DNA from: a virus
Lineage: Duplodnaviria; Heunggongvirae; Uroviricota; Caudoviricetes
IMG/VR virus record: IMGVR_UViG_2639762987_000002
Strand: one strand, 5' to 3'
Length of the DNA stretch: 64,000 bases
Position numbers and translations under genes: made by a program
In this document: piece by piece, positions 4,847 through 47,647 of the stretch
Layout of the letters: each line of letters starts with the position of its first letter
Numbering within the stretch: the first letter of the stretch is position 1
The notes under the pieces: generated by a model
What the model was told of the DNA's origin: nothing
Database searches by the model: none
What the model saw: the letters and a program-made list of their open reading frames with translations, nothing else

Positions 4847-5158
4847 ATGAAAAAATCATTGGTTCTTGGTCTGGACAAAGACCAGAAGAGAAAAGAGAAG
4901 CCTGCGCTGGTTGCTCAATTAACTTTGCTGGACATCGTTGCCAATGGAACCTCTATTCGTCTGTTCCGTGAAACAGCGGTGTCTTTCGATAAAAACACCT
5001 TTACTCGTTATGTAATGAATGTTCGTCGCCAGCGTGGAAAAGGCTGGATGGCATATCAAAGAATGTGGCCGGAACATCAGCTCGAACTGGCTTTGATGGA
5101 AGTTAACCGCGTGGCCCAGCAAGAAATTCAGAGAGCATCAGTGATGGCAATAGCCTGA
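4847..5158 (+). CDS. hypothetical early protein (103 aa)
   Basis: ORF; ATG 4847 follows motif-1 and RBS acggag. Confidence 0.55.
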   Translation: MKKSLVLGLDKDQKRKEKPALVAQLTLLDIVANGTSIRLFRETAVSFDKNTFTRYVMNVRRQRGKGWMAYQRMWPEHQLELALMEVNRVAQQEIQRASVMAIA

Positions 5159-42534: not shown

Positions 42535-42765
42535 ATGAAAAGATTATTTCTAACAATAGCTGTTGTTCTCTCTCTTACTGGCTGTCAGAAATTGCCGACA
42601 CCCATATGTTATGGTGAGGCTATCATTGGTGGACAGGAGACAGTCATACCTATATATGCTGTTAAAAAGGTTAACGGCTATACCTTATACAAAGCGGGTA
42701 GCATCTATAACTGGCGATGGGTTGGAGTAGGTGCTTTCTCATCAGTGCGTTGCAATGCTGAATGA
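42535..42765 (+). CDS. small lipoprotein (76 aa)
   Basis: Signal MKRLFLTIAVVLSLTGC with lipobox LTGC. Confidence 0.6.
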   Translation: MKRLFLTIAVVLSLTGCQKLPTPICYGEAIIGGQETVIPIYAVKKVNGYTLYKAGSIYNWRWVGVGAFSSVRCNAE

Positions 42766-44286: not shown

Positions 44287-44502
44287 TTGATGAGTGGTCT
44301 CAGTTTACCTTTTATCCTAAAGATGGCATCTTCACTCATATACACGCCTGTTCACTCAAGCTCATGTTGAATCATTTAGTAATTTGATGTAGATTTATTA
44401 GGCATCCACGTAAGTGGGCACATACAGGCTACGCATCCTCGTAGCCTTCAACCCCGAGAGGGGTGCCGCAATGACACTTGTGTTAACGGCTAAGGTGGAC
44501 AC

Positions 44503-44886
44503 ATGCTGAACGAGAAACGTTCTATACAAACTATTCGCGATTGCACGAGTATTATCGAGACTCATGTGCTGAATCAGCACAAGCTTGAAGTACGTAAGCT
44601 CAATAATGACGCTATTGAACCGGAAGACTCACGCTTCATCGTTACCTTCAAAGACGATGTTGAGCGCGCTGGTGCAAGCGTGAAGCCATTAGCTGAAGCA
44701 ATTTACCTGAATGGTCGTGTTCGTTTTGTAGTCAAGCCAGCTAAACAGTACCCTGAGCTGTCTCGTTTTATCGAGGCTTTTTCGGAGGTTATTGAACATT
44801 CTATTCGCCGCTTCTTACGCAATCATGGTAGCATTGTCAGCACGGTTAAGGCTGATGATTCTGCTACAAAATGGCTCCTACACTAG
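44503..44886 (+). CDS. hypothetical protein (127 aa)
   Basis: ORF with RBS aaggtgg. Confidence 0.55.
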   Translation: MLNEKRSIQTIRDCTSIIETHVLNQHKLEVRKLNNDAIEPEDSRFIVTFKDDVERAGASVKPLAEAIYLNGRVRFVVKPAKQYPELSRFIEAFSEVIEHSIRRFLRNHGSIVSTVKADDSATKWLLH

Positions 44887-45623
44887 ATAGCGCATATTCA
44901 AAAGATCTAAGCGAGTTTCCTCATAAAGGGGAGACTCGTGTTGTTCGTTTTGGCTTTCTTATCAATGAAGCCTCCCTCTATAAAATCTCAGAAATTGAAA
45001 TCATTGAACCAGAAGATGACATTTGCCTGTATGTCTCTATGGAACTTGTAGGTGCGCGCGACCAAGGCGACCTGAGCGAATTCATCTTAGATCGAGCGGA
45101 TGAAGATGCCCCTGAAGAAGAGATTATCAAAGAGGTGCTCCAGTCCGGGCTTCTGGACGAAAACAAAAATACGATCGCTGGTAGGATAGCTCTGCGTGAA
45201 TATAGTTTTGTTGAAGACGGTAATGAGATCGAATGTTACCAGGTAGCCGGTGTCGAAACTGTCAGAGAGCGTCGTCAGCGAGGATTGTGTCACCGTACCT
45301 ATCTCTTTCTTCTTCATTGGTATGAGCATTTAGTCTGCGACGATACACAAACCATTCCTGGTGCTAAGATCTGGGCAGGGCCTCTCATGCGAACCGGCGA
45401 TGTGCGTATATACAATGCCAAAACAGAAACGTTCGAGGATGTGTTAGGTGAGTACGGGATGGGGAAAGAAACCGGATTTTTGCCGTGGAACAGAGGATTG
45501 TTGCTTGATGCAGAGTTAAGCTCTTGGCTCCCAAACAAAGTGCAAGTTAACGTTCAGAAATTTATCGTACTTATCATCTCCCGCAAAACAAGAACTCCAG
45601 TAGGTTTATACCTAAAAGATTAA
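44871..45623 (+). CDS. hypothetical protein (250 aa)
   Basis: ORF overlapping the upstream gene by 16 nt. Confidence 0.55.
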   Translation: MAPTLDSAYSKDLSEFPHKGETRVVRFGFLINEASLYKISEIEIIEPEDDICLYVSMELVGARDQGDLSEFILDRADEDAPEEEIIKEVLQSGLLDENKNTIAGRIALREYSFVEDGNEIECYQVAGVETVRERRQRGLCHRTYLFLLHWYEHLVCDDTQTIPGAKIWAGPLMRTGDVRIYNAKTETFEDVLGEYGMGKETGFLPWNRGLLLDAELSSWLPNKVQVNVQKFIVLIISRKTRTPVGLYLKD

Positions 45624-45628
45624 AAATC

Positions 45629-45652
45629 AGGCGACTTTGGTCGCCTTTTTTG
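45629..45652 (+). terminator. Rho-independent terminator
   Basis: Hairpin ggcgactttggtcgcc followed by tttttt. Confidence 0.8.
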
Positions 45653-45799
45653 TTAACAGCCATTGATTCTCGCCTAAAAATTCTAAGGCAGCACCTACCA
45701 TTTAACCTTTACACCACAGCCGTAGGCATTTAGGCTATATCACATATAAGAAAACAAGTTGTTTCAGACGATAATTATATACGCAAAGGGAACTCTCCA

Positions 45800-46879: not shown

Positions 46880-47647
46880 TTATGCCGCGCTAACACTATG
46901 TTCAGTCCTAACCACCCCAACCTTCACAAAAGGGCTACCGTAGCTTGGTGGCTTCTTGATTAATTTGCCTACATACAGTTTTCTAATATGCTCATCGGCT
47001 ATTCTGCCAACAAATTCATAACGTTTTGTGTCGGGGCCAAGAGCTATATCCCTTGTAAAGTACTGCTGAGAACCGGCTTTGACCCAGCATTCAATCTGAT
47101 AAACTTCCATTATCAGCCCACCATATGTAGCGTAGGCATATTTGAGATTCTCGTCTCTTGGAACCTTTGCCCATACGCCACGCGTAGCTTCATATAATGC
47201 CAGAGCGGACATTCCTGACTTGTAGGTGCTGTTTAGCAGGAAGGCAAGACCGGCGTGCTCAGGAGCAATTTCAGTTTCCTCTTGCAGCACTAAGTGATGG
47301 TAGGCGTCCAGTGATATTCTGCCCATCATGGAACCACTTCCTCGTACCTTATTCGTAAGCTCTCCGACCCCCATAAGGTCGATGCATGTCGCCTCAACAA
47401 GTTTGGCTGTGGTTTCATCCATACCATGACGAAGTATATCTATGCCTAATTTTTTATTAGCCAAAAGTTCTTTGATCCGCATGGATTTGGGAGAGTCATC
47501 GGGATACTTGATGTGATCGAGACAACGAGTCGATTTGCCTTTTCCTATGTAAAACGGTCTTTTCATCTTGTCTTCTGTATCATAGAGACAGTAAACATAG
47601 TATTTAGCCTTATCCAATGATCTCGCGTATACCGATAAATCGTCCAT
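46880..47647 (-). CDS. GIY-YIG domain protein, free-standing endonuclease-like (255 aa)
   Basis: N-terminal YVYCLYD...(11 aa)...FYIGKGK fits the GIY-(x9-11)-YIG motif; lone minus-strand gene between large palindromes. Confidence 0.6.
   Translation of the reverse strand: MDDLSVYARSLDKAKYYVYCLYDTEDKMKRPFYIGKGKSTRCLDHIKYPDDSPKSMRIKELLANKKLGIDILRHGMDETTAKLVEATCIDLMGVGELTNKVRGSGSMMGRISLDAYHHLVLQEETEIAPEHAGLAFLLNSTYKSGMSALALYEATRGVWAKVPRDENLKYAYATYGGLIMEVYQIECWVKAGSQQYFTRDIALGPDTKRYEFVGRIADEHIRKLYVGKLIKKPPSYGSPFVKVGVVRTEHSVSAA

Follow-up and report, generated by a model that had tools for sequence, protein, structure and literature searches.

Toxin-antitoxin modules of the GNAT/DUF1778 type (TacAT, AtaRT, KacAT and ItaRT) combine a toxin of ~160-180 amino acids (aa), which has a basic tRNA-binding surface and a catalytic tyrosine in helix alpha4, with an antitoxin that is a ribbon-helix-helix (RHH) DNA-binding protein of the DUF1778 family. 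Here we describe a pair of overlapping genes, A and B, in a 64,000-nucleotide (nt) stretch of DNA from the IMG/VR virus record IMGVR_UViG_2639762987_000002 (referred to at its full length as the window), which comes from an SSU5-like phage-plasmid. The closest known kind is a GNAT-based toxin-antitoxin module, of which A-B would be a clearly divergent form. The likeness lies in the gene arrangement, since the small gene for the proposed antitoxin comes first and overlaps the larger gene, by 16 nt in most alleles. The proteins differ: B is acidic, measures 250 aa and has a tryptophan (W168) where the tyrosine of those toxins would be expected, whereas A is an alpha/beta, half-GNAT-like protein without a detectable DNA-binding domain. 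Because B is acidic and large, lacks an RHH partner and has Trp for Tyr, we do not place it in the GNAT/DUF1778 family, and a tRNA-acetylating toxin of that family was rejected for the charge and size of B and the missing RHH partner.

Other described proteins share single traits with the pair. Hat1 and Naa40 (NatD), which acetylate basic protein tails (N-terminal or lysine), are eukaryotic, do not form two-gene mobile cassettes and are 6-13% identical to B, so that we see no evidence of ancestry shared with B beyond the superfamily. In the com-mom operon of phage Mu, the translational activator Com is a zinc-finger protein of 62 aa, unlike A with its 127 aa and no cysteine motif, and Mom is a binder of DNA and tRNA, unlike the strongly acidic B; moreover, A-B also occurs outside phages. 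Homology to Com-Mom was rejected in view of the acidity of B and the lack of a zinc finger in A. Finally, the polyvalent proteins P0098, P0111, P0116 and P0118 contain two to three copies of a B-type core signature, GRG[IL]..Y..L...GY.L.SD..QT..G.K.WA. They share with B a core of ~60-100 residues alone, have no A-like domain and are single giant proteins. Judging from these matches, the B-type core appears to be reused in other inter-genome conflict proteins, of the polyvalent type known from phages and conjugative elements.

We propose, tentatively, that A-B is a toxin-antitoxin-like addiction or abortive-infection module in which B would be the effector and A its neutraliser. A promoter, a leader, a small gene overlapping a larger one and a terminator form the typical layout of a type II toxin-antitoxin operon, and the proposal fits because the cassette has this layout. 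A selfish toxin-antitoxin-like or defence signature is further indicated by the fact that the unit is autonomous, that its genes are linked and coupled, that it sits on minimal plasmids and in solitary insertions, and that its hyperdivergent alleles are swapped. In the literature on SSU5 and phage-plasmids, GNAT toxins and Mom we found no description of the pair; new here are the fold assignment, the cassette-exchange pattern and a conserved leader predicted to be able to mask the ribosome-binding site.

Cassette anatomy and leader RNA

An earlier reading of the window, made from its sequence alone (the sequence-only reading), had described two overlapping open reading frames of 127 and 250 aa, preceded by a hairpin-rich leader of ~210 bp, followed by a strong terminator and located between the lysis and partition modules. 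Our analysis bears out this anatomy. The leader, 216 nt long, separates the last base of the Rz1 frame (44286) from the start codon of gene A and contains three hairpins, at 44406-44417, 44426-44447 and 44452-44463. Homologs of holin, endolysin, Rz and Rz1 lie 5' of the cassette, and a ParA-type ATPase lies 3' of it. The features are as follows.

44367-44395, + strand: predicted cassette promoter, sigma-70-like, with -35 TTGAAT (44367-44372), a 17-nt spacer and -10 TAGATT (44390-44395)
44406-44417, + strand: inverted repeat CCAC GTAA GTGG just past the -10 element, a 5'-terminal mRNA hairpin or an operator
44426-44447, + strand: stem-loop I (AGGCTACG / CGTAGCCT), a perfect 8-bp inverted repeat with 3' arm CTCGTAGCC
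44441-44449, + strand: proposed anti-Shine-Dalgarno segment (GTAGCCTTC), paired with 44494-44502 in the RNAalifold consensus
44452-44463, + strand: stem-loop II (CCCC GAGA GGGG), with compensatory changes
44465-44490, + strand: stem III, GCCG (44465-44468) with CGGC (44487-44490); the hairpin inside it varies and immediately precedes the ribosome-binding site
44492-44499, + strand: Shine-Dalgarno sequence of gene A, AAGGTGGA, inside the invariant block CGGCTAAGGTGGA
44503-44886, + strand: gene A, 127 aa, phrog_2594; mostly basic, half-GNAT-like; proposed neutraliser
44871-44886, + strand: A/B overlap of 16 nt (ATGGCTCCTACACTAG), coding for ..KWLLH and stop in A and for MAPTL.. in B
44871-45623, + strand: gene B, 250 aa, phrog_3307; acidic, divergent GNAT fold; proposed acyltransferase effector
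45629-45654, + strand: intrinsic terminator found by scan (AGGCGAC TTTG GTCGCCT, then TTTTTTGTT); stem 45629-45646 of 7 bp with 5 G-C pairs, plus the T-run
45655-45692, no strand: right edge of the exchangeable block; homology to the replicons of other alleles resumes at 45693

The positions of the promoter hexamers and their exact 17-nt spacing are kept in 15/15 distinct leaders from phage-plasmids, Erwinia, Dickeya and Pantoea, which suggests that the promoter is active; its score of 8/12 lies under the 9/12 threshold of a simple scan. An inverted repeat follows the -10 element in nearly every allele. Its sequence differs (for example GTTGACG-N3-4-CGTCAAC, or TGACTACA-N9-TGTAGTCA), and in a few alleles (for instance R41 and Pantoea) it is degenerate. 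Recombinants with R7-type coding alleles bear the window-type repeat, which argues against an operator specific to each allele, and we therefore lean towards a hairpin at the 5' end of the mRNA; A, for its part, has no known DNA-binding fold. The overlap of the two genes is absent from the R41 type (0 nt) and replaced by a gap of 16-17 nt in the homologs on Rep3 plasmids; where present, it implies translational coupling. Of the 13 alleles checked, 9 have a terminator 3' of B, and its sequence differs between them.

The RNAalifold consensus of the 15 leaders is a three-way structure. In stem-loop I the 3' arm is invariant (15/15) and the 5' arm varies and is sometimes degenerate, while four of the five pairs of stem-loop II show compensatory changes on both sides. 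Both arms of stem III are again invariant (15/15) around a variable segment that is ~65 nt longer in the Erwinia and Dickeya copies. As for the pairing between 44441-44449 and 44494-44502, 6/6 pairs are 100% paired and every change preserves pairing by wobble; double-sided covariation was not found in these pairs in the 15 leaders. The covariation score of the leader was reached by 0/500 shuffles, and slid controls drop to 34-56% paired. Taken alone, the whole-leader fold is modestly better than that of shuffles (z = -1.74). Consequently, we consider the structure credible because it is conserved across alleles and shows compensatory changes, and not because of the folding energy of the window leader. 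These observations point to a leader that can pair with the ribosome-binding site and mask it.

The invariant blocks of the 5' untranslated region (UTR), CTCGTAGCC, GCCG and CGGCTAAGGTGGA, persist between alleles whose proteins are 30-40% identical, and the leader is specific to the A-B cassette. When the pattern CTCGTAGC-N25-55-CGGCTAAGGTGGA was searched, an A homolog followed in 38/38 readable matches in IMG/VR (39 in total) and in 27/27 non-chance metagenome matches. Rfam 15 holds no family for this leader and gave no match at E <= 1 within 44290-44502. An Rfam match to PhrS at 45471-45655, covering the 3' end of B and the terminator, reached 17 bits against a gathering threshold of 37 (E = 0.2) and was judged to be due to chance.

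Linkage, mobility and allele replacement

Gene A lay immediately 5' of gene B in 43/43 of the loci first collected, and the same linkage was seen in every leader-matched viral or metagenome locus with enough sequence. The pair occurs between Rz1 and parA in SSU5-like phage-plasmids, on the strand common to both neighbours, and adjoins the integrase in the lambdoid phage PhiR12. In the chromosome of Erwinia pyrifoliae it stands alone between rep and gppA, and in that of Dickeya fangzhongdai it has a pilT-like gene on one side and an amidohydrolase gene on the other, again as a solitary insertion. Distant homologs reside on Rep3 plasmids of 4-6 kb, where the 5' gene of 108 aa is a homolog of A (hhalign probability 97%). 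A-B is a mobile pair across unrelated replicon contexts, and its patchy, mobile, self-contained bicistronic distribution over plasmids, prophages and chromosomal islets is of the kind seen for type II toxin-antitoxin systems. A 310-aa protein, P0081, joins a Rep3-type initiator (Pfam Rep3_N, Rep3_C) in-frame with an internal fragment of a B homolog; it could stem from a rearranged small plasmid or from an assembly chimera.

The close relatives of A and of B are confined to Enterobacterales. A profile of B run against 1.84 billion cluster representatives retrieved 46 proteins at E <= 0.001, and a homolog search with a broader alignment (A5), whose divergence made it unfit for pattern scans, added almost no further members. 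The family is rare outside phage-plasmids, since a scan of genome species representatives gave 2 loci.

The cassette is an exchangeable block, because divergent A and B genes sit between near-identical flanks. Compared with PhiR41_1, the window is 92.6% identical in nucleotides up to 44264 and 98.3% identical from 45693 onwards; between these flanks a 76-nt piece of the leader aligns alone, and the proteins are 41% (A) and 33% (B) identical. The plasmid pR7-S2K78-1 is 98.0% identical up to 44510, that is through the leader and 8 nt of gene A, and 98.4% identical from 45693, with A 33% and B 30% identical to those of the window. SSU5 carries a fourth allele, and its flanking lysis and partition proteins are 82-95% identical to those of the window (Rz 82%). 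At least four alleles, ~30% identical, fill one slot between flanks of 92-98% identity, and the unit from ~44265/44511 to 45692 has been swapped as a block between otherwise near-identical phage-plasmids. The divergence of the two genes can be discordant, as in a comparison of the R7 allele with that of SSU5, which share 62% identity in A and 35% in B. The right breakpoint at 45693, ~40 nt past the terminator and 107 nt before parA, is common to PhiR41_1 and pR7-S2K78-1, which suggests a preferred recombination boundary.

The autonomous two-gene cargo unit that the sequence-only reading had suggested is well supported by these data, in that the pair has its own conserved promoter, leader and terminator, is strictly linked, occurs in four unrelated replicon contexts and is replaced by whole alleles. 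The functions listed as candidates in that reading fared unequally. A toxin-antitoxin or defence function is the candidate that best fits the distribution, whereas an anti-defence pair and a lysis regulator fit poorly with the copies in Erwinia, Dickeya and the Rep3 plasmids.

The two proteins and the explanations weighed

The absence of a recognisable motif in either protein, as stated in the sequence-only reading, holds for the profile libraries (Pfam, NCBIfam, PADLOC) and does not hold for structure. B gave no Pfam or NCBIfam match at E <= 1, nor did its homolog from the Rep3 plasmids, and A gave nothing useful in Pfam, NCBIfam or PADLOC; in PHROGs both families (phrog_2594 for A, phrog_3307 for B) are labeled 'unknown function'. 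According to its predicted structure, B is a highly divergent GNAT-fold protein, with a mixed alpha/beta core (a beta-sheet with alpha1-alpha2 and beta4-alpha3-beta5-alpha4), extra N-terminal strands and a C-terminal extension of ~70 residues. Its best structural matches are Hat1, Naa40 and AAC(2'), with the GNAT toxins AtaT and TacT among the others, and a search of BFVD structures gave weak NAT_SF matches. Profile searches against PDB sequences returned noise alone for A, and for B noise or AAC(2')-Ia at E about 1. The one link of B to a curated GNAT profile is transitive and comes from P0098: positions 95-183 of the B profile match its residues 171-258, and since this first B-profile match coincides with Pfam Acetyltransf_1 (162-257), the GNAT assignment of B is supported. 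The polyvalent proteins in question (~1430-1490 aa) also bear ParB-like nuclease domains, DUF6934 and the phage-related DUF3693.

Residues P3, Q124, Y144, D157, Q160, W168 and W206 of B are invariant throughout the family. At the place of the motif A pyrophosphate-binding loop (consensus Q/R-x-x-G-x-G/A, between beta4 and alpha3) the window protein reads R135-Q-R-G138-L-C140, and the weak match to AAC(2')-Ia (E about 1) aligns RRQGIG here. The protein of the window has a pI of 4.8 and a net charge of -16.

The N-terminus of B, M-A-P..(Y).K.L (window 44871-44900), is conserved family-wide and modelled as disordered; the overlapping frame of A does not explain this conservation, because homologs without overlap keep the motif. 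In SSU5 the annotated start of SSU5_032 (L001, JQ965645, locus position 5049) is apparently 48 nt too far downstream. The SSU5 homolog of B (L001 5001-5750) starts at 5001 with the family-wide N-terminus, MAPSL; its overlap with SSU5_031 measures 16 nt, which is also the length of the A/B overlap in the window.

The predicted structure of A is alpha/beta and resembles the first half of the GNAT fold. An alignment of the A and B profiles by hhalign showed no sequence similarity that would indicate paralogy. A is mostly basic across alleles, and its C-terminal 18 residues are modelled as disordered. Disordered tails are common in antitoxins.

Natural decay of the cassette bears on the roles of the partners. 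In one locus (L082, representing a cluster of 18 members) B is frameshifted by a 1-nt deletion while A is intact, and in PhiR12 B is possibly likewise disrupted and A intact. The reverse, a disrupted A beside an intact B, was not seen among the loci examined. In L106, B is intact according to tblastn. Because B decays with A kept, and because gene order and coupling agree, we favor B as the potentially harmful partner and A as its neutraliser.

Under the toxin-antitoxin-like explanation, the sigma-70 promoter would drive an mRNA with the conserved 5'UTR, in which the CCUC-containing segment would mask the Shine-Dalgarno sequence and keep expression low. A would be translated first and B coupled to it via the 16-nt overlap, such that B never exceeds A. 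B would transfer an acyl group from acyl-CoA to a cationic cellular target other than aminoacyl-tRNA, which could be a small molecule or a basic protein, and its activity would be toxic. A, which resembles in shape the acceptor-binding half of a GNAT and lacks the CoA-binding half, would bind B and hold it inactive. Next to parAB in a phage-plasmid, the pair would then penalise loss or displacement of the replicon, and competition between related elements could generate the diversity of alleles. If so, such an addiction or exclusion module would help to explain the persistence of SSU5-like elements and the competition among their relatives, and would extend the toxin-antitoxin and defence repertoire by a GNAT effector whose target is not tRNA and by a novel type of partner.

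However, several observations weigh against this explanation and keep it tentative. No toxin-antitoxin, Pfam or PADLOC model matches A or B; PADLOC-DB 2.0.0 gave one meaningless 22-residue match, to PDC-S39 (E = 0.013). No DNA-binding domain of the RHH or helix-turn-helix type is recognisable in A, in contrast to the usual type II antitoxins. B is acidic in 12/12 alleles (pI 4.6-5.6, net charge -5 to -16), which sets it apart from the tRNA-binding GNAT toxins, and for this reason their mechanism is probably inapplicable; any enzymatic activity of B would more plausibly be directed at a cationic protein or small molecule. In the model of B, the half that would bind acetyl-CoA is of low confidence (pLDDT 38-69). 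An invariant tryptophan, W168, stands where the catalytic tyrosine of motif B is expected (aligned by eye), and G138 is kept at >=90% in the close clade but is R, K, H or N in distant members. Since the large polyvalent proteins carry B-like GNAT cores without an A-like domain, the core is not obligatorily partnered with A. Finally, the frameshift in PhiR12 lies in a T7 homopolymer and is possibly a sequencing error.

The strongest alternative, which we regard as possible and somewhat doubtful, is a non-toxic accessory enzyme complex: B would be the catalytic GNAT and A a specificity, adaptor or regulatory subunit, together acylating a host, phage or small-molecule target. The carrier would benefit without addiction, for example by inactivating a competitor protein, by modifying a nucleoid or ribosomal protein, or by detoxifying a cationic compound. 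That the best fold matches of B act on basic substrates, and that B is acidic in all alleles, agrees with such a complex. So does the occurrence of B-like cores, two to three per ~1450-aa polyvalent protein together with ParB-like nuclease domains, in a context of inter-genome conflict and not of self-poisoning, and hypervariable alleles within conserved flanks would also suit a specificity in defence or counter-defence. On the other hand, solitary insertions beside housekeeping genes and residence on 4-6 kb plasmids are more typical of addiction cassettes, the tight coupling and the leader predicted to mask the ribosome-binding site suggest a need to restrain expression, and PADLOC has no match.

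More speculative, and in our view rather unlikely, is that A-B is the founding example of a new two-component conflict system. Here the acceptor site of an acidic, highly derived GNAT would be supplied or blocked by a paralog-like half-GNAT, which would take the controlling role of a DNA-binding antitoxin. Hypervariable alleles, swapped between a conserved leader and a conserved right flank, would decide the competition with related phage-plasmids or infecting phages, and expression would be gated by a cassette-specific, previously undescribed 5'UTR structure that covers the ribosome-binding site. The leader RNA may in turn be bound by the N-terminal helix of A, which is invariant.

The polarity of the toxin-antitoxin-like module could also be reversed, with the small basic A as the toxin and the GNAT-fold B as an antidote that binds or acylates it, which we consider improbable. 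There is precedent in E. coli yjhX-yjhQ, a pair with a long regulatory leader in which the gene for a small toxin comes before that for a GNAT antitoxin, and an enzymatic antitoxin has been proposed both for type VII systems and for TopAI(YjhX)/YjhQ. In most alleles a basic A accompanies an acidic B, and an enzymatic antidote could act sub-stoichiometrically, so that the gene order would be no obstacle. However, neither A nor B has a Pfam match to the YjhX/YjhQ families, and the loss of B with A intact, in the 18-member cluster and possibly in PhiR12, argues against a toxin-first polarity, as it should be lethal if A were toxic.

Least probable by far is that the pair is no mobile cargo and serves SSU5-like elements in an integral housekeeping role, be it in lysis (as regulator or accessory), in the virion, or as an accessory of partition or incompatibility. 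In favor of it, the slot between Rz/Rz1 and parA is fixed and on the same strand in all SSU5-like elements examined, and every such locus examined bears an allele, all these loci having been retrieved via the cassette itself. Against it, the pair has its own promoter and terminator, its alleles are ~30% identical where the flanking lysis and par genes exceed 90% identity, and the copies on Rep3 plasmids and in the chromosomes of Erwinia and Dickeya have no phage or partition genes close by. These non-phage contexts contradict a lysis regulator or virion protein. The sequence-only reading had named homology to structural or lysis-accessory proteins as a finding that would speak against its proposal; searches of PHROGs, Pfam, NCBIfam and structures found no similarity to holin, antiholin, spanin, endolysin or virion proteins, nor to partition families.

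Genomic setting and neighbouring genes

Synteny with Salmonella phage SSU5 and Escherichia phage PhiR41_1, together with the 100% identity of the cassette region to non-mobilizable plasmids of ~105-120 kb from E. coli and Shigella sonnei, identifies the source of the window as an SSU5-like phage-plasmid. A match was found in 78 of 5,426 complete E. coli genomes, in all cases on plasmids, and 129 plasmids of PLSDB contain the cassette locus. Clinical E. coli, Shigella, Salmonella and Klebsiella commonly harbor SSU5-like phage-plasmids, and resistance genes occur on some phage-plasmids related to these. In their otherwise conserved backbone the cassette is the most divergent segment, and both of its genes are annotated merely as 'hypothetical'.

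The 5' neighbours are homologs of the genes annotated in SSU5 as holin, endolysin, Rz and Rz1, with the holin and endolysin 94-95% identical to those of SSU5. On the 3' side the ParA-type ATPase (Pfam MipZ, AAA_31, CbiA) is followed by a small ParB-like gene. No anomaly in base composition was detected over the cassette.

Two further genes of the window deserve mention. At 42535-42765, between the tail-fibre and lysis genes, lies a gene for a 76-aa Cor-like phage exclusion lipoprotein, annotated via its homologs in SSU5 and pR7-S2K78-1. Directly past the parA and parB-like genes, at 46880-47647 on the - strand, a gene encodes a 255-aa protein with a LEM-3-like GIY-YIG nuclease domain (Pfam PF22945). 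In related phage-plasmids the same slot is occupied by a DUF2971 gene (L043 from 5544; L082 5798-6517), and a second variable cargo slot, at 46880-47647, adjoins the partition module.

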